From a virus (taxonomy: Duplodnaviria > Heunggongvirae > Uroviricota > Caudoviricetes), in IMG/VR virus record IMGVR_UViG_2734482594_000020: a stretch of 31,289 nt of DNA; one strand, written 5' to 3'. Below the pieces are notes generated by a model. That model saw only the letters and a list, made by a program, of their open reading frames with translations, did not search any database and was not told where the DNA came from. Positions 1-16,749 of this stretch are shown here, one piece after another (within the stretch, counting starts at the first letter, position 1; each line of letters begins with the position of its first letter). Position numbers and translations under genes: made by a program.

Positions 1-573
1 ATGTTTTGCGAAGAAAAAGTAGCTCAAATGGCTGCATACCTACTTCTTAAGCGAGGTGGGCGCATGGCATATCTGAAATTGATGAAGTTGCTCTATCTGT
101 CTAACCGCCAGTCGATTTTGAAGCATGGCAGGATGATCGGCGAAGATAGCCTTTACTCTATGAAATTTGGACCAGTCATGTCGAATACGCTGAACTTGAT
201 TCGCGGTAAGGCTGAAGGCATTGGTGACTACTGGTACAACTTGATAGAGACGAACGGGCATAATGTATCGTTGCGTTCAGATCCGAGGGAAATGGATGCA
301 GACGAGGTCTTTGATGAATTGAGTCGTGCAGATATCCGGATTTTAGATGAAATCTATTCTCGGTATGGGCATATGAACCGATTTGATCTCGCAAATATGA
401 CGCATTTAGAAAGCGTTTGTCCAGAGTGGCACGATCCTGGCAATTCTCGTAAGCCTATAGACCTGAAAGAAATGCTGATCAGTGAGGGTAAAAGCGAGGA
501 TGAGGCTAATCGCATAATTGGCAAAATGGAAGAATCTCAGAAACTTAAGGAATTTTCTTTGCAATTATCATGA
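1..573 (+). CDS. Panacea-domain (DUF4065, GepA/SocA-like) protein, putative antitoxin-type component; N-terminus may be cut by the window edge
   Basis: 190-aa ORF with the 'KLMKLLYL' and 'FGPV' motifs I associate with COG3600/DUF4065 proteins; stop overlaps the start of the next ORF (ATGA at 570-573); region looks AT-richer than the phage backbone by eye. Confidence 0.55.
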   Translation: MFCEEKVAQMAAYLLLKRGGRMAYLKLMKLLYLSNRQSILKHGRMIGEDSLYSMKFGPVMSNTLNLIRGKAEGIGDYWYNLIETNGHNVSLRSDPREMDADEVFDELSRADIRILDEIYSRYGHMNRFDLANMTHLESVCPEWHDPGNSRKPIDLKEMLISEGKSEDEANRIIGKMEESQKLKEFSLQLS

Positions 574-9774: not shown

Positions 9775-10263
9775 ATGAGTCTTTTGAATGAAGTTCAGAA
9801 ATTCATTGAAGCCCATCCGGGGTGTACTTCCGGAGACATTGCGGATGCTTTTGCAGGTTACTCACGGCAGCGCGTTCTGCAGTCAGCAAGCAAGTTACGT
9901 CAGAGTGGGCGTGTGGATCACCGTTGTGAAGGAGATACACGCAGACATTTCCCGCGCCTGACTGAGAGAGCGCAGGAACCGGAACCACAACCAGTTCGAG
10001 AAACCAGACCTGTGCGCAATTTCTATGTCGGCACTAACGACCCGCGGGAGATTTTGTGCCGGACCCGCCAGGCTGAAGAACTGGAGTCCAGGGGCTTATT
10101 TCGTCGTGCTGCAACCGTGTGGATGGCGGCATTCCGTGAAAGCCACTCCCAGCCAGAACGAAACAATTTTCTGGCGCGTCGTGAACGGTGTTTACGGAAA
10201 AGCAGTAAGCGGGCTGCATCGGGTGAAGAGTGGTATCTGTCAGGGAATTACGTGGGGGCTTAA
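9775..10263 (+). CDS. PerC-family transcriptional regulator-like protein
   Basis: C-terminal 'ELESRGLFRRAATVWMAAF...ARRERC' resembles the PerC/Pch signature as I recall it; ATG at 9775 with AGGGGG upstream (the track's GTG at 9769 is an alternative). Confidence 0.4.
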   Translation: MSLLNEVQKFIEAHPGCTSGDIADAFAGYSRQRVLQSASKLRQSGRVDHRCEGDTRRHFPRLTERAQEPEPQPVRETRPVRNFYVGTNDPREILCRTRQAEELESRGLFRRAATVWMAAFRESHSQPERNNFLARRERCLRKSSKRAASGEEWYLSGNYVGA

Positions 10264-10916
10264 TGAGTAATAAATATTGCCAGGCGCTGGCGGAACTGCG
10301 GAACAAACCAGCCCATGAACTGAAGGAAGTGGGCGATCAGTGGCGCACGCCGGACAACATTTTCTGGGGAATTAACACCCTGTTTGGCCCGTTTGTTCTG
10401 GATCTGTTCACTGACGGTGATAACGCCAAATGTGCTGCGTATTACACGGCGGAAGACAACGCGCTGGCGCATGACTGGTCAGAACGCCTTGCGGAGCTTA
10501 AAGGTGCTGCCTTTGGTAATCCCCCATACAGCCGCGCCAGTCAGCATGAGGGGCAATACATCACCGGCATGCGTTACATCATGAAGCATGCCAGTGCCAT
10601 GCGTGATAAAGGCGGGCGCTATGTTTTCCTGATCAAAGCTGCCACCAGCGAAGTGTGGTGGCCGGAAGATGCAGATCATATTGCTTTTATTCGCGGGCGT
10701 ATTGGTTTTGAACTGCCTGCCTGGTTTATCCCGAAGGATGAGAAGCAGGTGCCGACAGGCGCTTTCTTCGCTGGTGCTATTGCTGTTTTCGACAAGACCT
10801 GGAAGGGACCGGCAATCAGCTACATCGGGCGCGATGAACTTGAGGCATGTGGTGAGGCCTTTCTGGCGCAGGTTCGCCAGCAGGCAGAAAAACTGGTCAG
10901 GGAGATGGCGGCATGA
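10263..10916 (+). CDS. phage Dam-like DNA N6-adenine methyltransferase (NPPY motif)
   Basis: Catalytic 'GNPPYS' motif; TAATG overlap with the upstream stop; no adjacent restriction endonuclease. Confidence 0.7.
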   Translation: MSNKYCQALAELRNKPAHELKEVGDQWRTPDNIFWGINTLFGPFVLDLFTDGDNAKCAAYYTAEDNALAHDWSERLAELKGAAFGNPPYSRASQHEGQYITGMRYIMKHASAMRDKGGRYVFLIKAATSEVWWPEDADHIAFIRGRIGFELPAWFIPKDEKQVPTGAFFAGAIAVFDKTWKGPAISYIGRDELEACGEAFLAQVRQQAEKLVREMAA

Positions 10917-11239
10917 CGACGTTAACTCAATGCCAGCAGCAGGTGCTGGATATGCTGATTTCTTACCAGCAAGAGCGTGGCTTTCCGCCAACCAATCAGG
11001 AGGTGGCAACCATGCTGGGATACCGTTCGGTGAATGCAGCGGTGGAGCATCTTCGCGCACTGGAGAAAAAAGGCGTCATCACGATAAAGCGTGGCGTGGC
11101 CCGGGGGATCACGCTTCATACCGCAGTGAAGGACGACGACAGCGAAGCGGTCGGGATTATCCGCGCACTGCTTGCCGGTGAGGAAAACGCCAGGCTGCGT
11201 GCAACCCACTGGTTACATGAGAGGGACCTGAAAGTATGA
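10913..11239 (+). CDS. LexA N-terminal DNA-binding-domain protein lacking the S24 protease domain
   Basis: Aligns by eye along residues 5-65 with the E. coli LexA winged-helix domain ('RSVNAAVEHLRALEKKGVITI' versus 'RSPNAAEEHLKALARKGVIEI'); ends at 108 aa. Confidence 0.7.
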   Translation: MTTLTQCQQQVLDMLISYQQERGFPPTNQEVATMLGYRSVNAAVEHLRALEKKGVITIKRGVARGITLHTAVKDDDSEAVGIIRALLAGEENARLRATHWLHERDLKV

Positions 11240-11625
11240 AGCTGATCCTGCCTTTTCCGCCCAGTGTGAACACGTACTGGCGACACCCCAACAAAGGGGC
11301 ATTTGCTGGTAAGAGCCTGATAAGCGAGGCGGGGCGAAAATTTCAGAGCGCGGCGTGCGCAGCAATAGTTGAGCAGTTACGTCGTCTGCCGAAACCAACG
11401 TCGGCACCTGCTTCAGTGGAGATCGTGTTGTTTCCGCCGGATAACCGGATCCGCGATCTGGACAACTATAACAAGGCGCTGTTTGACGCCCTGACCCATG
11501 CGGGTGTGTGGGAAGACGACAGACAGGTGAAAAGAATGTTGGTGGAGTGGGGACCGGTTATCCCGAAAGGGAAGGTCGAGATCACTATCAGTAAGTATGA
11601 GAAACCGGCGGGTGCAGCCGCCTGA
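11236..11625 (+). CDS. rusA: RusA-family Holliday junction resolvase
   Basis: 'RDLDNYNKALFDALTHAGVWEDD' catalytic-Asp region typical of RusA; about 129 aa. Confidence 0.85.
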   Translation: MKLILPFPPSVNTYWRHPNKGAFAGKSLISEAGRKFQSAACAAIVEQLRRLPKPTSAPASVEIVLFPPDNRIRDLDNYNKALFDALTHAGVWEDDRQVKRMLVEWGPVIPKGKVEITISKYEKPAGAAA

Positions 11626-11644
11626 TTAAGAGGAGAAACGAAGT

Positions 11645-12454
11645 ATGAATAATCTGATGGTCATTGATGGTATTGAAGTTCGTCGTGATGCTTATGGGCG
11701 TTACAGCCTGAACGATCTGCATCGCGCAGCAGTAGCATCTGGTGCAAATGCCAGAACCAAGGAGCCAGGAAAGTTTCTTTCCAGCCAACAAACTGTTGAG
11801 CTTGTTCATGAATTGACCAACACCCAGAATTTGGGTGTTGACCCGGTGAGTGTGATTCATGGGGGAAATGAACGGGGAACGTATGTCTGCAAGGAACTGG
11901 TGTATGCCTATGCAATGTGGATCAGCCCGTCATTCCATCTGAAAGTGATCCGTACTTTCGATATGGTAACCAGCGCACCGGAAAAATTATCCGGGCAGGC
12001 TGCTGACAAGATGCAGGCTGGCGTGATCCTGCTGGACTTTATGCGCCGGGAGTTAAACCTGTCTAACTCTTCAGTGCTTGGTGCCTGTCAGAAACTCCAG
12101 GAGGCTGTTGGCTTACCGAATCTGGCACCGCGCTATGCCATTGATGCTCCTGCTGATGCACACGATGGCTCAAGTCGCCCGACACTGTCACTGAGCGCAC
12201 TGCTGAAACAGTATGGTATACGCCTGACGGCTAATCAGGCATATCACCAGATGGTGAAACTGGGGATCGTCGAGCAGCGCGAACGATACAGCCGTACCGC
12301 GATTAACAACATCAAAAAATTCTGGTCGCTGACAGCGAAAGGTTGCATGTTCGGCAAGAACATCACCAGTCCCGCAAATCCGCGCGAGACGCAGCCGCAT
12401 TTCTTCGAATCCCGATTCCCTGAGCTGTTAAAGCTGCTCGATACCGTTCATTGA
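11645..12454 (+). CDS. KilA-N domain protein
   Basis: N-terminal KilA-N-like region ('GGNERGTYVCKELVYAYAMWISPSFHLKV'); RBS AGGAG before the ATG. Confidence 0.6.
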   Translation: MNNLMVIDGIEVRRDAYGRYSLNDLHRAAVASGANARTKEPGKFLSSQQTVELVHELTNTQNLGVDPVSVIHGGNERGTYVCKELVYAYAMWISPSFHLKVIRTFDMVTSAPEKLSGQAADKMQAGVILLDFMRRELNLSNSSVLGACQKLQEAVGLPNLAPRYAIDAPADAHDGSSRPTLSLSALLKQYGIRLTANQAYHQMVKLGIVEQRERYSRTAINNIKKFWSLTAKGCMFGKNITSPANPRETQPHFFESRFPELLKLLDTVH

Positions 12455-12461
12455 GGTGACC

Positions 12462-13451
12462 GTGAGAGCACTACTGACCCCTGAAATTGCCCCGCGTATG
12501 GGGATCGTATTGTTCAGGCCTGGTTCAGAGCTGATGCCCCTGTTTATGCAGGGGCGTGTCCTGCTGGAGCCTGAGCCGGAGCGTTATTCATCTTTCGCCA
12601 GTGGTGCCGTTCCGGCGGCATCACAACCGCTGGCGGATGATCCTGCCGTTCGGGCCGTGTTCCGCAATGAGGCAGTGATCCGTCGTGCTGGTGGCGTGGA
12701 ATGTCTTGAAAGCTGGTTACTTCGTGAAAAAGGCTGCCAGTGGCCTCATTCCGACTGGCACAGCGAGAACATGACCACAATGCGACACGCTCCGGGTGCA
12801 ATCCGTCTGTGCTGGCACTGCGATAACCAGCTGCGCGATCAGTTCACGGAACGGCTGGAATCAATGGCAACGGATAACTGTGCCCGCTGGGTGTTGTCTG
12901 TTGTGCGTCGGGATCTCGGTTTTGATGACAGTCACGTTGTGACAATGCCGGAACTGTGCTGGTGGCTGATTCGTAATGATCTGGCGGATGCCTTACCGGA
13001 AAGTGCAGCCCGTAAGGCACTGAGATTACCGAAGCCTGTTGTGCCGTCTGTTACCCGGGAAAGTGACCTTGTGCCTTCGGTTCCTGCCACCAGCATCATC
13101 CAGGATAAGGCGAAAAAGGTGCTGGCGCTGAAAGTGGATCCGGAGTCGCCGGAGTCTTTTATGTTACGCCCAAAACGTCGCCGCTGGGTTAATGAAAAGT
13201 ACACGCGCTGGGTTAAGACACAGCCGTGTGCATGTTGTGGAAAGCCCGCTGATGATCCCCACCATCTGATAGGTCACGGTCAGGGTGGAATGGGAACAAA
13301 AGCGCATGACCTTTTTGTGTTGCCTTTGTGCAGAAAGCATCACGACGAGCTGCATGCGGATACCGTGGCATTTGAAGAGAAGTATGGCTCCCAGTTGAAG
13401 CTGATATTTCGTTTTATCGATCGCGCGCTGGCAATTGGCGTGCTGGCCTGA
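12462..13451 (+). CDS. DUF968-family protein with C-terminal HNH/zinc-finger-like motif
   Basis: C-terminal 'CACCGK...HH...[12 protein letters not shown]'; GTG at 12462 has better SD spacing than the track's GTG at 12456. Confidence 0.5.
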
Positions 13452-13468
13452 TTGTGTGGAGAAAGTTG

Positions 13469-13834
13469 ATGCGTGATATTCAAATGGTTCTTGAACGTTG
13501 GGGGGCATGGGTGGCAAATAATCACGAGGATGTCACTTGGTCGTTTATTGCTGCAGGATTTAAAGGACTAATCCCTTCAAAAGTAAAATCCCGCCCGCAA
13601 TGTTGTGACGATGACGCGATGATCATTTGTGGATGCATGGCTCGCCTGAAAAAGAACAACAGCGATTTGCACGATTTATTAGTGGATTATTATGTAGGTG
13701 GTATGACGTTTATGGCGCTTGCCCGTAAACATGGGCGTTCTGATTGCTGGGTTGGGCGTTTATTGCAAAAGGCTGAAGGTGTAGTTGATGGCATGTTAAT
13801 GATGTTAGAAATTGAGCTAGAGATGGATCGTTAG
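13469..13834 (+). CDS. Q: late-gene antiterminator Q (phage 21/82-type)
   Basis: '[18 protein letters not shown]...[12 protein letters not shown]' matches my memory of the Q21-type family; GGAG 7 nt before the ATG at 13469; sits immediately before the lysis region. Confidence 0.65.
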
Positions 13835-13876
13835 AAGACCTCTTATTGAGAGGGTAATTGAATCAGTTTAATGTGT

Positions 13877-13908
13877 GGGGAGTCGATTTATTCTCCCCAT
13901 TTTATTTA
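13877..13908 (+). terminator. rho-independent terminator just downstream of Q (tR'-like candidate)
   Basis: GGGGAG-(10 nt)-CTCCCC followed by ATTTTATTT. Confidence 0.6.
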
Positions 13909-13918
13909 ATTAATTTAC

Positions 13919-14365
13919 TTAAGGTTTTAATTCATCAAGACGTTGTTGGATAGTGTTTTTGCTTGCGTTGTCTGTTATAGCCATTTGTTGTACTTGCCCC
14001 ATTGCCATTTGAGTTTCCATCCACATATCGGCCCACACTTTTGTATCGTTATTAACTTGAGCGATAGTAAATCTGACTTTTGATACCGGGGTTGTTGAAT
14101 AGGCATTGCCGATTAACATTTGTCCAAAAACAGCAGACCCGCCTTCCAGTTCTTTACCACATATAACACTGCTGTTATCCGCGTTGTAAATTATCAACCC
14201 TCTACTATTGCAGTAATTCACAAGGGCATCTTTGACTTTATCTTTTGTCGTATTTTGATAAACCCCCTCAGGTTTTCCTGATTGAGTTTTCTTTATCAAT
14301 GGTACGGAAGAAGTACAACCTGAAATGATAGTTGCGCTAAGTAATAGTACAGTCATTTTATTCAT
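13919..14365 (-). CDS. lipoprotein (antisense moron between Q and the late genes)
   Basis: Signal peptide with lipobox 'IISGC'; AT-rich; own promoter candidate on the minus strand (-35 TTGATT, -10 AATAAT around 14400-14430). Confidence 0.6.
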   Translation of the reverse strand: MNKMTVLLLSATIISGCTSSVPLIKKTQSGKPEGVYQNTTKDKVKDALVNYCNSRGLIIYNADNSSVICGKELEGGSAVFGQMLIGNAYSTTPVSKVRFTIAQVNNDTKVWADMWMETQMAMGQVQQMAITDNASKNTIQQRLDELKP

Positions 14366-14488
14366 GTTTCTTATCCATTGTTAAGGGCATACCTACACAA
14401 TTATTTTTATTGGAGATGAATAATCAACCGTTTACAATCGTAAAAAATCAAATATGCTGTTAAGAGTGGTTACTTCGCCACACAACTT

Positions 14489-14514
14489 AAACCCGCCACT
14501 GAGCGGGTTTTTTG
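14489..14514 (+). terminator. rho-independent terminator
   Basis: AAACCCGC-cactga-GCGGGTTT followed by TTTTGT. Confidence 0.6.
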
Positions 14515-14635
14515 TACCTGTAAACTTGGTGCAGTACAGTAAACACGCTGGTGGTCGTGAATACTGACTTTTTATCTTGCTGGCTTTTTAGACAAGAGTT
14601 ATTGGTATGTCATGTTAACCAGAAGGGAAAAAGAC

Positions 14636-14839
14636 ATGCTAAAACAGCAAGATATGACAGAAACCGCCGCCGCAGTCCTTCATTTCTTACCTGCTGACAA
14701 GTGGGTAACGCCACGCATGATGACGAGAACTACCGGAGTAAGCGAAGCCCAGTGCCAGTTAATACTGACTCAGTTAGTTCTGGCGGGTCTGGCGAAGGAT
14801 AACGGCGGGTACGGGAATAAATTCAGACGCTGCCAGTAA
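14636..14839 (+). CDS. small putative winged-helix DNA-binding protein
   Basis: ATG at 14636 with AGAAGGG 8 nt upstream; helix-turn-helix-like composition is weak evidence only. Confidence 0.4.
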   Translation: MLKQQDMTETAAAVLHFLPADKWVTPRMMTRTTGVSEAQCQLILTQLVLAGLAKDNGGYGNKFRRCQ

Positions 14840-14989
14840 TGGCGGTTTCCTGCTGTGAAAATGGGCGGCTGGTGGGTGTTGGTAGCACCTGCCAGCCATT
14901 CGCTCATGCTTACTGGTCACAAGCGAACCACGGCCCACTGCTTTAGCGCAAAAGCAGAGTGAGCCTACCAGAGTTACGCTTACTGATCC

Positions 14990-16042
14990 ATGAAAAATAC
15001 TGTAAAAATAAACAGTGTTGATTTAATCAACGCTGATTGCCTGCATTTTATTCAGTCCCTGCCTGATAACTCCATTGATCTGATTGTTACCGATCCGCCG
15101 TACTTCAAAGTGAAGCCCAACGGCTGGGACAATCAGTGGAAAGGGGACGAAGATTACCTGAAGTGGCTGGACCACTGTCTGGCCCAGTTCTGGCGGGTAC
15201 TGAAACCAGCCGGAAGCCTTTACCTGTTCTGTGGGCATCGCCTGGCATCTGATATTGAGATCATGATGCGTGAACGTTTCAACGTGCTTAACCATATCAT
15301 CTGGGCGAAGCCGTCCGGACGTTGGAATGGGTGTAATAAAGAAAGTCTGCGTGCATATTTTCCTGCCACAGAGCGCGTTCTGTTTGCTGAACATTACCAG
15401 GGGCCATATCGCGGCAAAAGTGACGGCTATGCGGCAAAAGAAAGGGAACTCAAACAGCACATAATGGCACCGCTGATTTCGTATTTCAGGGATGCTCGTG
15501 CCGAACTGGGTATAACGGCAAAACAAATTGCCGAAGCCACAGGTAAGAAAAATATGGTTTCCCACTGGTTTGGTGCCAGTCAGTGGCAGTTGCCGAATGA
15601 GGCTGACTATCGGAAGTTACAGGCACTGTTTTCCCGTATAGCGGCAGAGAAGTTTCAGGAACAACAACTGGAACAACCACACCACCAGCTGGTGGCATCT
15701 TATGATTCACTGAATCGCAAATATTCTGAATTGCTGGATGAGTTTAAATCTCTCCGGCGCTATTTCTCCGTATCAGTCTCCGTGCCTTATACCGATGTCT
15801 GGATGCATAAACCCGTTCAGTTCTACCCGGGGAAACATCCGTGTGAGAAACCGGCGGATATGCTCAGGCAAATAATCAATGCCAGTAGTCGACCTGGTGA
15901 TCTGGTTGCTGATTTTTTTATGGGATCCGGTTCCACAATAAAAGCAGCAATGGCGCTGGGGCGTCGGGCCTTAGGTGTTGAGCTTGAGTCAGAGCGGTTT
16001 AATCAGACAGTGAAAGAGATAAACGAGCTGGTGGGGAAATAA
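14990..16042 (+). CDS. orphan DNA methyltransferase (N6-adenine/N4-cytosine class, DPPY motif)
   Basis: 'LIVTDPPYF' catalytic motif near the N-terminus and C-terminal 'FFMGSGST' AdoMet-binding motif; no restriction partner nearby. Confidence 0.7.
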
Positions 16043-16048
16043 TCTGGT

Positions 16049-16074
16049 GGCCACGTCAGGTGGCCTTTTTATTT
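16049..16074 (+). terminator. rho-independent terminator between the methyltransferase and the holin
   Basis: GGCCAC-gtcag-GTGGCC followed by TTTTTATTT. Confidence 0.5.
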
Positions 16075-16109
16075 CCATTACACAGCACCCGCATCTGCGA
16101 GGTGGGGTT

Positions 16110-16325
16110 ATGAAATCCATGGATAAGTTAACAACGGGTGTCGCCTATGGCACCTCAGCAGGTAGTGCCGGGTACTGGTTTTTACAGTTGCTCGATAAAG
16201 TCACGCCCTCACAGTGGGCGGCAATAGGTGTGCTGGGTAGTCTGGTATTTGGCCTGCTGACGTACCTGACAAACCTTTATTTCAAGATTAAAGAAGATAA
16301 GCGCAAGGCTGCGAGAGGTGAATAA
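16110..16325 (+). CDS. class II holin / pinholin (phage 21 S-like) with dual-start motif
   Basis: Near-identity by memory to S21 ('MKSMDK...[13 protein letters not shown]...[11 protein letters not shown]...NLYFKI'); two in-frame Met (16110 and 16119) separated by a Lys codon. Confidence 0.8.
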
Positions 16326-16411
16326 TGCCTCCATCATTACGAAAAGCAGTTGCTGCTGCTATTGGTGGCGGAGCAATTGCTATAGCATCAGTGTTAATCA
16401 CTGGTCCGAGT
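16325..16411 (+). CDS. SAR endolysin (phage 21 R-like), N-terminal 29 codons only; gene runs into the N gap
   Basis: '[29 protein letters not shown]' matches the signal-anchor-release domain of R21 as I recall it; TAATG overlap with the holin stop. Confidence 0.7.
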
Positions 16412-16749
16412 NNNNNNNNNNNNNNNNNNNNNNNNNNNNNNNNNNNNNNNNNNNNNNNNNNNNNNNNNNNNNNNNNNNNNNNNNNNNNNNNNNNNNNNNN
16501 NNNNNNNNNNNNNNNNNNNNNNNNNNNNNNNNNNNNNNNNNNNNNNNNNNNNNNNNNNNNNNNNNNNNNNNNNNNNNNNNNNNNNNNNNNNNNNNNNNNN
16601 NNNNNNNNNNNNNNNNNNNNNNNNNNNNNNNNNNNNNNNNNNNNNNNNNNNNNNNNNNNNNNNNNNNNNNNNNNNNNNNNNNNNNNNNNNNNNNNNNNNN
16701 NNNNNNNNNNNNNNNNNNNNNNNNNNNNNNNNNNNNNNNNNNNNNNNNN
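16412..16749. other. 338-nt run of N (assembly gap or masked sequence)
   Basis: Direct observation; removes the endolysin body and the Rz start. Confidence 1.

Follow-up and report, generated by a model that had tools for sequence, protein, structure and literature searches.

The stretch of viral DNA analysed here (IMG/VR record IMGVR_UViG_2734482594_000020; 31,289 nucleotides, called the window in what follows) belongs to a lambdoid prophage, of a type that is very common. Two genes for orphan N6-adenine methyltransferases lie on its + strand, methylase 1 (10263..10916) and methylase 2 (14990..16042). Directly 5' of methylase 2, a gene of the M.EcoGII family, lies a conserved structured leader RNA of approximately 140 nt (14853..14989, + strand), which was recognised by covariation, folding and a covariance model. 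The region 13400..16400 was 98.5% identical to Escherichia phage PhiR40_1, and modules of the window recur in the phages cdtI, mEp460 and SfV as well as in many Stx-converting phages.

The gene order on the + strand is replication gene, YfdN-like activator, methylase 1, LexA-like protein, RusA, KilA-N protein, DUF968/HNH protein and Q (13454..13834, PF06530), followed by a lipoprotein gene on the reverse strand. Beyond the lipoprotein gene come a promoter-like site, a terminator, a small open reading frame (ORF), methylase 2, a P21-type holin (PF04971) and the other lysis genes. The initial annotation had described two orphan adenine methylases of different classes in different operons, a Dam-like NPPY enzyme in the early operon and a DPPY enzyme between Q and the lysis genes. 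Both descriptions were borne out by the profile matches of the two enzymes (PF05869/TIGR01712 versus PF01555), the NPPY motif, the gene order and the identity of the flanking Q and holin genes. Likewise, no restriction endonuclease or other partner was found among the neighbours of the two genes, in the rest of the window or in the annotation of PhiR40_1, and PADLOC reported only the two methylases. An endonuclease beside the methylase, the mark of a Type II restriction-modification system, was absent; the neighbours of methylase 2 are the small ORF, which encodes a winged-helix protein, and the holin.

A conserved leader RNA upstream of methylase 2

Loci for comparison were collected in three sets: 80 with one genome per species (Enterobacterales, 62–94% protein identity), 80 from IMG/VR and 120 by DNA pattern. 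In an alignment of the 5' regions of five phages, the 130–140 nt before the ATG were far better conserved than the small ORF. Islands of leader sequence persist in N15-like phages, where the methylases are only 57–62% identical to that of the window. Measured against the window, the mean identity was 0.80 in the leader core and 0.72 in the coding sequence; synonymous third positions reached 0.40, and the 150 nt upstream 0.57.

The leader consists of a three-way junction, formed by the helices P0, P1 and P3, and a further hairpin, P4, all read from the alignment on the + strand. P0 pairs UGGGC (14862-14866) with GCCCA (14933-14937) and encloses the 12-bp hairpin P1 (14867-14897) and P3, in which UUCGCU (14899-14904) pairs with AGCGAA (14922-14927); P3 has two additional apical pairs and a loop that contains GGUCAC (14915-14920). 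Hairpin P4 (14938-14957) is followed by the conserved single strand GAGCCUACCA (14961-14970; consensus GAGCCUAYCA) and, after a variable stretch, by the tail CGCUU-AC-UGAUCC (14977-14989). RNAalifold, when run on the MAFFT alignment, found P0 and P1, missed P3 and placed P4 in the wrong register. For this reason the structure was assigned manually and then checked by pair counts against controls. A ranking of all column pairs by mutual information was also tried; it was dominated by phylogenetic signal, and only pairs of P1, P3 and P4 were both high-ranking and consistent with Watson-Crick pairing.

Covariation was tested on a MAFFT alignment of 54 leaders (A4), with helix partners slid by 1–3 columns and 500 shuffles as controls. 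Over P0, P1, P3 and P4, 89.7% of the cells could pair, compared to 28–45% with slid partners. Half of the pairs (15 of 30) had changed on both sides and 35 further pair types were seen; none of the 500 shuffles reached any of these values. In a fitted alignment the paired fraction was 91.2% and the number of pairs changed on both sides 19. One pair of P3, for example, occurs as C-G, A-U and U-A, and P1 is of wholly different sequence in YDC107_1, Ewingella and Providencia and still fully paired. In a further locus (L104) the change of UGGGC to UGAGC is accompanied by that of GCCCA to GCUCA. G-U pairs are frequent, which places the structure on the RNA of the sense strand. The 100-nt core alone also folds into the P0/P1/P3/P4 structure, at -48 kcal/mol (z -3.8).

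The covariance model built for the leader (R1) gave a single match in the window, with 157 bits and an E-value of 1e-40. It matched 57 of 85 diverse loci, once each and always directly 5' of the methylase gene. Matches to the DNA pattern in IMG/VR numbered 121; 114 precede a methylase homologue, 5 are chance matches in unrelated coding DNA and 2 are cut by the end of a contig. Several of the methylase genes behind these IMG/VR matches are truncated or degraded. All M.EcoGII-family genes examined in the Enterobacterales lineages with a long leader, whether full-length or degraded, had the leader directly 5' of them. Among 5426 complete E. coli genomes, 1276 contain the segment of leader plus methylase 2 gene, in up to 8 copies per genome.

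The 933W-like Stx2a phages contain only the last 35 codons of the methylase, and no leader; this remnant in front of the tRNA genes is a deletion scar. In some other Stx2a and Stx2c phages the cassette of winged-helix ORF, leader and methylase lies in the late transcript directly upstream of three tRNA genes and stx2AB, as in Stx2a_EH1846 (locus L004, 2152..5182) and in locus L288 (2462..2906). The leader is thereby part of the 5' region of some Shiga-toxin transcripts. In Xenorhabdus and Photorhabdus (loci L136-L166) a short form was seen at about 80 nt before the ATG, with GUGAAAUG, a P1-like hairpin, some 45 nt and then ...CGAUNUAUGG. This short leader may be a minimal version of the element.

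A conserved reading frame was looked for within the leader and none was found. As a candidate leader peptide we considered MGGWWVL-stop, which starts at the conserved AUG 14862 (14862..14885, AUG GGC GGC UGG UGG GUG UUG), has tandem tryptophan codons and ends after 7 codons in 22 of 53 sequences. It was ruled out, as the frame is broken or shifted in the other sequences, the N15-like leaders have no tryptophan codons and a Shine-Dalgarno (SD) sequence is missing; UGG-UGG is probably a by-product of stem P1. The leader had no match in Rfam 15 (4227 families, including the SAM and SAH riboswitches, small ribozymes, AgvB and AsxR). A scan of 3 kb with Rfam returned nothing in 14853..14995 at E-values up to 1, and a scan of 166 nt gave only two matches at chance level (E 7–8; a microRNA and a snoRNA). 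In the literature we found no description of a leader, small RNA (sRNA) or riboswitch at the methylase 2 locus. A conserved and compensated non-coding structure at a fixed place 5' of one gene family is what is expected of a cis-regulatory leader, and this was observed here. The leader is a new, uncatalogued feature that is specific to M.EcoGII-family genes.

The two methyltransferases

Methylase 2 (14990..16042, + strand) is an orphan beta-class N6-adenine methyltransferase of 350 amino acids (aa), which was assigned to the M.EcoGII/M.EcoGI family by its PF01555 match (E 2e-42, covering residues 29-341) and its identity to M.EcoGII. The order of its motifs, TDPPYF (residues 34-39) before FFMGSGST (residues 309-316), is that of the beta class, and its relatives in the PDB (RsrI, MboIIA and CcrM) are beta-class enzymes. 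It is 81% identical to M.EcoGII over the full length (282 of 349 residues), the recognition domain included, and 89% identical to the reconstructed ancestor Anc291 (311 of 348 residues); the sequences of both were taken from a machine-read PDF of Table S1 of PMC11551740, and a few of the mismatches may be reading errors. The identity to the 'putative DNA methylase' of phage cdtI is 99.7%.

M.EcoGII, a beta-class enzyme of 349 aa from a prophage of E. coli O104:H4 C227-11, methylates adenine non-specifically (Murray et al. 2018, PMC5778455). The same paper places it in 'a very large family' found in prophages of E. coli and describes it as unexpressed in the normally growing lysogen and as harmful under constitutive expression (PMC5778455). 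M.EcoGI is also non-specific, and its 99% homologue in EC958 is transcriptionally silent (PMC4659465). Anc291 acts on both DNA and RNA and has, as does M.EcoGII, little sequence specificity (PMC11551740). Judged from these relatives, methylase 2 most probably methylates adenine in any sequence context.

Methylase 1 (10263..10916, + strand) is an orphan phage Dam-family N6-adenine methyltransferase of 217 aa in the early-right (nin-like) operon, coupled translationally to its neighbours, the genes for the YfdN-like activator and the LexA-like protein. It matched the Pfam family Dam (PF05869) with an E-value of 1e-45 and 156 bits (cut-off 28.1) and the NCBIfam equivalog model phage_N6A_met (TIGR01712) with 255.6 bits (cut-off 97.05). 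Its catalytic motif AAFGNPPYS (residues 82-90) aligns with IWNNPPYS of orf32 of VT2-Sakai, which is also a member of PF05869 and to which it is 31% identical. The 'DNA N-6-adenine methyltransferase' of vB_EcoM-720R4 is 100% identical to methylase 1. By its membership of the phage Dam family methylase 1 probably has a GATC-like specificity; that of the family was taken from Table 3 of PMC6602927.

PhiR40_1, PhiR55_1, vB_EcoM-720R4 and many Stx2c phages also have both methylase modules. The pairing is thus known and common, and adds little by itself; both genes are real, ordinary and already explained. An anti-restriction role, which the initial annotation had attributed to the pair in the form of protection against several restriction systems, is plausible and agrees with the role proposed for M.EcoGII (Murray et al. 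2018, PMC5778455). The two specificities are, however, probably nested rather than separate, since a non-specific adenine methylase covers GATC too if methylase 1 is specific for that site.

The late promoter and the terminators

A candidate for a pR'-like late promoter (TTTACA-16-TATGCT, 14431..14458, + strand) matched the consensus at 9 of 12 positions. It is followed by a first, tR'-like terminator hairpin (14489..14516, + strand), predicted by folding and composed of AACCCGCC-ACUGAG-CGGGUU and a U run; the fold of 14462..14520 has an energy of -20.1 kcal/mol (z -3.9). The segment 14430..14520 is about 77% identical to the promoter/terminator segment downstream of Q in Stx2 phage 86 (933W-like), and the DNA module shared with other methylase-bearing phages starts at this terminator (around 14490). 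A second, weak terminator-like hairpin (14826..14849, + strand; -11.9 kcal/mol) has the small ORF's stop codon within its loop and is followed by UUUCCUG. Relatives have a stronger hairpin and a U run at this position, and a GC-rich hairpin with a U-rich tract is present just 5' of the leader in nearly all loci. The terminator scan also showed a hairpin with a T run between the stop of methylase 2 and the start of the holin (16049..16075, + strand; GGCCACGTCAGGTGGCC followed by TTTTTATTTC), at the place where a putative terminator is annotated in phiKO2. The annotated order in this N15-like phage is late promoter, terminator, approximately 140 nt, methylase, terminator and lysis genes.

As methylase 2 follows Q, the pR'-like promoter and two terminator hairpins, late and Q-dependent expression of the gene is likely from the layout of the sequence, and the terminators on both sides of the cassette fit with expression only under antitermination by Q. 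The position behind two terminator hairpins is also consistent with silence in the lysogen, as published for the homologues (PMC5778455, PMC4659465). We infer that the two methylases differ in timing, with methylase 1 in the early and methylase 2 in the late operon.

Bracketed by terminators, the methylase cassette resembles a moron without an evident promoter. The segment of Stx phages that corresponds to 14430..14520 is the locus that yields the Hfq-binding sRNA StxS. In the window it would give a short, CA-rich terminated transcript, with ACACAAC before the hairpin; it did not match the Rfam models of AgvB and AsxR. On the - strand, 14481..14617 showed a weak match to the Salmonella sRNA candidate STnc130 in Rfam (30 bits with a gathering score of 55, E 0.079), which extends across the terminator into the beginning of the small ORF. 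Being below threshold and outside the leader, it was discarded and is probably shared prophage sequence.

The start region and two alternative folds

The translation initiation region of methylase 2 (14984..14992, + strand) consists of UGAUCC followed by AUG; it overlaps the second copy of an 11-bp repeat that is treated below. CUGAUCY-AUG is kept in genera that range from Escherichia to Providencia, Ewingella, Hafnia and Yersinia. No SD sequence of the GGAGG type is present before methylase 2. Close to its 3' end, 16S rRNA contains GGAUCA, to which UGAUCC is complementary; UGAUCC also lies in the register of the full anti-SD duplex. By this complementarity UGAUCC probably serves as a weak ribosome-binding site, which would explain the conservation of the second repeat copy.

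The start region can also be covered by the leader. In the start-covering helix GGUCAC-AAGCG, from the loop and the 3' strand of P3 (14915-14925), pairs with CGCUU-AC-UGAUC (14977-14988). Across the alignment 87.7% of this helix is paired and 6 pairs have changed on both sides, a result obtained in 1 of 500 shuffles; its flanking pairs differ between lineages. The helix excludes P3, and a second helix of the same fold, AUGGGC:GCUCAU, excludes P0. AUGGGC:GCUCAU is 98.7% pairable and every substitution in it keeps a pair. With ViennaRNA the sequence of the window gave -57.3 kcal/mol for the open fold and -58.4 kcal/mol for the start-covering fold, a difference of 1.1 kcal/mol in a model with errors of several kcal/mol. 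For most homologues it is the start-covering fold that has the lowest energy of all, with an average margin of 3.5 kcal/mol. The mean unpaired probability of the start region was only about 0.41, a prediction of a largely paired state.

A simple pseudoknot between loop and start (GGUCA:UGAUC) was considered separately. Most sequences can form it, and YDC107_1 has a different complementary pair, AGCUAU/AUAGCU. It was rejected on account of uncompensated changes at U146 or G147 and of phiKO2-like leaders without a consistent partner, and was kept only within the alternative fold.

The small winged-helix ORF

The ORF between the two terminator hairpins (14636..14839, + strand) encodes an optional stand-alone winged-helix protein of 67 aa, which matched phrog_331 with an E-value of 2e-25. 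The longest ORF begins at 14612; the conserved start is the ATG at 14636, which is preceded by the SD sequence AAGGGA. An AlphaFold (AF2) model made from 22 homologues had a pLDDT of 85.6 and the order H-H-H-beta-beta, i.e. three helices and a beta hairpin. Foldseek aligned it to Zalpha and to the winged-helix domains of IclR and TrmB with a TM score of about 0.8, and some of the homologues are named 'TrmB family' by NCBI. The earlier description of the ORF as wHTH-like thus holds, with the start moved from 14612 to 14636. A connection to winged helices that read m6A (PMC11037411) was looked into and dropped, as that paper uses M.EcoGII only as a reagent and gives no support.

At 8 of 8 genome places the ORF was followed by a 350-aa PF01555 gene. 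It is present in 37 of 58 leader-bearing loci and absent from the other 21, and is therefore not an obligatory partner.

Other features of the window

Between Q and the late promoter lies a gene for a lipoprotein-like protein of 148 aa (13919..14365, - strand; phrog_3152, no Pfam match), with a promoter-like site of its own (14384..14355) that fits the consensus at 10 of 12 positions. The reverse-strand cargo of this slot is quite different in other E. coli prophages, for example a 483-aa AAA ATPase (matches to AAA_15, AAA_21 and AAA_23, and only a faint one to DUF2813) or a set of two genes. Since the cargo differs between prophages, the slot is an apparent hot spot for cargo genes (morons). 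Genes for tRNAs between Q and methylase 2, as in Stx phages, were searched for and none was found.

A run of 338 N (16412..16749), masked or unresolved, lies inside the lysis region, and ORFs listed across it are artefacts for that reason. A gene for a SocA/Panacea-domain antitoxin-like protein (1..573) runs off the start of the window and is followed by a 139-aa ORF without Pfam match (to 989). The two are annotated as YafM/YafO in PhiR40_1 and are a possible toxin-antitoxin pair at the prophage arm.

Discussion

The features described above suggest the following course of events. Methylase 1, as part of the early-right operon, would act during replication, and methylase 2 would appear only once Q allows read-through by RNA polymerase. 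The latter enzyme would then methylate the progeny DNA heavily before packaging and so weaken restriction of types I, II and III in the host infected next. As a non-specific methylase is toxic, a second layer of control at the level of the mRNA can be understood. In the open fold (the P0/P1/P3 junction and P4) UGAUCC-AUG would be free, and in the covering fold (AUGGGC:GCUCAU together with GGUCAC-AAGCG:CGCUU-AC-UGAUC) it would be hidden. The balance between the two would set the translation of the methylase and keep the output of the toxic enzyme low; it might be shifted by co-transcriptional folding, by a protein (the methylase, for instance), by RNase III or by a small ligand. Going by the predicted folds, the leader probably holds the M.EcoGII-like enzyme in check, and we infer a translational switch that limits a toxic enzyme. 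Taken as a whole, the reading of an early Dam-family and a late M.EcoGII-like orphan methylase, with the leader as a two-state translational control of the latter, is in our view fairly probable.

M.EcoGII is a widely used tool enzyme, and the literature on its natural regulation says only that it is 'not expressed' or 'tightly controlled'. The leader makes it testable how a phage restricts a methylase that acts on every adenine to the last part of the lytic cycle, and to just the amount needed. It is the part of this locus worth keeping, the pairing of two methylases being already explained.

An M.EcoGII-type methylase binds and methylates RNA. The leader might even be a true sensor, i.e. a new class of riboswitch or autoregulatory leader, in which the junction would bind SAM, SAH or the methylase and thereby free or hide UGAUCC-AUG. 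This is a tentative proposal, possible but rather doubtful. If true, it would mean a built-in dose limiter for a non-specific DNA and RNA adenine methylase across Enterobacterales phages.

Several observations weigh against the two-state control and the roles given to the two enzymes. The helix AUGGGC:GCUCAU shows one-sided changes only and none on both sides, and the start-covering helix competes with P3 exactly where the covariation of P3 is strongest (pair 56-82, versus a weak 82-139). N15-like phages (the phiKO2 group) have no consistent pairing of the start region, and the energies of the two folds come from a model with the errors given above. The relatedness of the sequences can inflate the shuffle statistics, of which only the pair-count and pair-type measures are robust. 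The relatives in Xenorhabdus and Photorhabdus carry the short form with P1 only, which model R1 does not match; since they keep only this form, the full leader structure is not indispensable. The promoter call is one of consensus match and homology, and the terminators were called from consensus matches or folds. Finally, the GATC specificity of methylase 1 is assigned from its family, at 31% identity to the VT2 enzyme, and the non-specificity of methylase 2 from M.EcoGII, at 81% identity.

A serious alternative for the leader is that it is real and acts in RNA processing or stability instead of as a switch: a possible RNase III site (the helix of about 19 bp formed by P1 and AUGGGC:GCUCAU), a protective 5' structure that would free or stabilise the methylase mRNA inside the long late transcript, or the precursor of a trans-acting sRNA. 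Phage leaders such as the lambda N leader are targets of RNase III. Such a role fits with the long, almost perfect hairpin that the element keeps at its 5' end, with the terminator hairpin that always precedes the leader and with the sRNA StxS, which in related phages arises by processing of short pR' transcripts (PMC7547250). As it leaves the conserved junction, P3, P4, the single-stranded GAGCCUA and the complementarity to the start region unexplained, we judge it unlikely. Conservation at the level of the DNA, through an internal promoter (TGTGAAAAT resembles an extended -10), a protein site or a recombination joint, could account for the conserved TGTGRAAAT directly after the terminator and for the location of the region at a mosaic boundary, within a module shared from about 14490. 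The covarying G-U pairs would, however, be C-A mismatches on the other strand, and the conservation extends over 140 nt in which helices vary in sequence and yet keep their pairing (e.g. P1 of YDC107_1). With the homologous genes moreover reported to be silent in lysogens (PMC5778455, PMC4659465), an explanation at the DNA level is decidedly improbable.

In the initial annotation, the region before methylase 2 had been given a dedicated control element in the form of the direct repeat GCTTACTGRTC. The repeat is present at 14908 and 14978, the second copy ending at 14988, one base before the ATG at 14990, but it is within chance expectation: 17 of 100 shuffles of the window gave at least two matches, and the same 700 nt contain four other near-repeats of 10–13 nt. 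The first copy is not conserved; it reads GTTTGAGGTC in phiNP and GCGTTGGGGTC in Stx2a_EH1846 and is lost in more distant relatives too, whereas the second copy is kept, as part of the start region. The GCTTA common to both is peculiar to this lineage. The second copy forms the 3' strand of the alternative helix, in whose 5' strand the 3'-end GGUC of the first copy lies, and the two look alike because GATC-like sequences are self-complementary. A conserved element before methylase 2 does therefore exist, as a folded RNA leader and not as DNA repeats. Were the copies nonetheless operators, bound by the winged-helix protein to control transcription of the methylase in the manner of a C protein, the tight linkage of the ORF to the methylase in lambdoid prophages would find a place. 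The absence of the ORF from 21 of the 58 leader-bearing loci, N15-like phages included, and compensatory changes with G-U pairs that point to RNA structure and not to DNA sites, make this most improbable. The proposal that methylase 2 is itself sequence-specific, so that the two enzymes guard against distinct restriction systems, concerns the protein and not the leader. In its favour, methylase 2 departs from M.EcoGII at 19% of its residues, and several of these lie in the target-recognition domain. On the other side, M.EcoGI and M.EcoGII, with 333 of 349 residues in common, and the reconstructed ancestors Anc291 and SUPREM show little sequence specificity (PMC5778455, PMC11551740; for M.EcoGI also PMC4659465), the window protein has 89% identity to Anc291 and a helix-turn-helix segment of 20 residues is conserved, which renders such specificity improbable.

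The two methylases and the leader can be compared with several known systems. Methylase 1 resembles the phage Dam family (HP1 Dam, T1 Dam and VT2-Sakai orf32, i.e. M.EcoVT2Dam) in profile scores, the NPPY motif, small size and in lying within a lambdoid phage's early (nin) region; it differs from the VT2-Sakai enzyme in being only 31% identical and 40 residues longer. Methylase 2 shares with M.EcoGII and M.EcoGI its motif order, the length of 349–350 aa, a four-helix recognition domain and the location on a prophage. The published account of M.EcoGII is silent on a pR'/tR' position, a winged-helix ORF and a leader RNA, and says only that the enzyme is 'not expressed' in the lysogen. As in C-protein-controlled restriction-modification systems, a small protein with a DNA-binding fold is encoded just upstream of the methylase gene. 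No C-protein/C-box module was found here, however: there is no endonuclease, the protein has a winged helix instead of an Xre-type helix-turn-helix, no C-box repeats are conserved (the one repeat present being within chance) and the ORF is optional.

Translational riboswitches and autoregulatory leaders, such as SAM-II/SAM-V, the operators of ribosomal proteins and that of T4 gene 32, hide a ribosome-binding site. The leader is like these in its conserved, aptamer-like core of several helices, a start region that can be paired and two mutually exclusive folds of similar predicted energy; unlike them, it matches none of the 4227 Rfam families even at E 10. In the com-mom operon of phage Mu, a toxic late DNA-modification gene follows a small ORF, a structure in the mRNA before it hides the start site, and its control has several layers. 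Com of Mu is a zinc-finger protein, is required, and its gene overlaps mom. The small ORF of the window, located 150 nt upstream, encodes a winged helix that has only two cysteines; many lineages do without it, and the sequences are unrelated. What the window would have in common with com-mom is a late, toxic modification gene with a small ORF and an mRNA structure upstream of it, under several layers of control.

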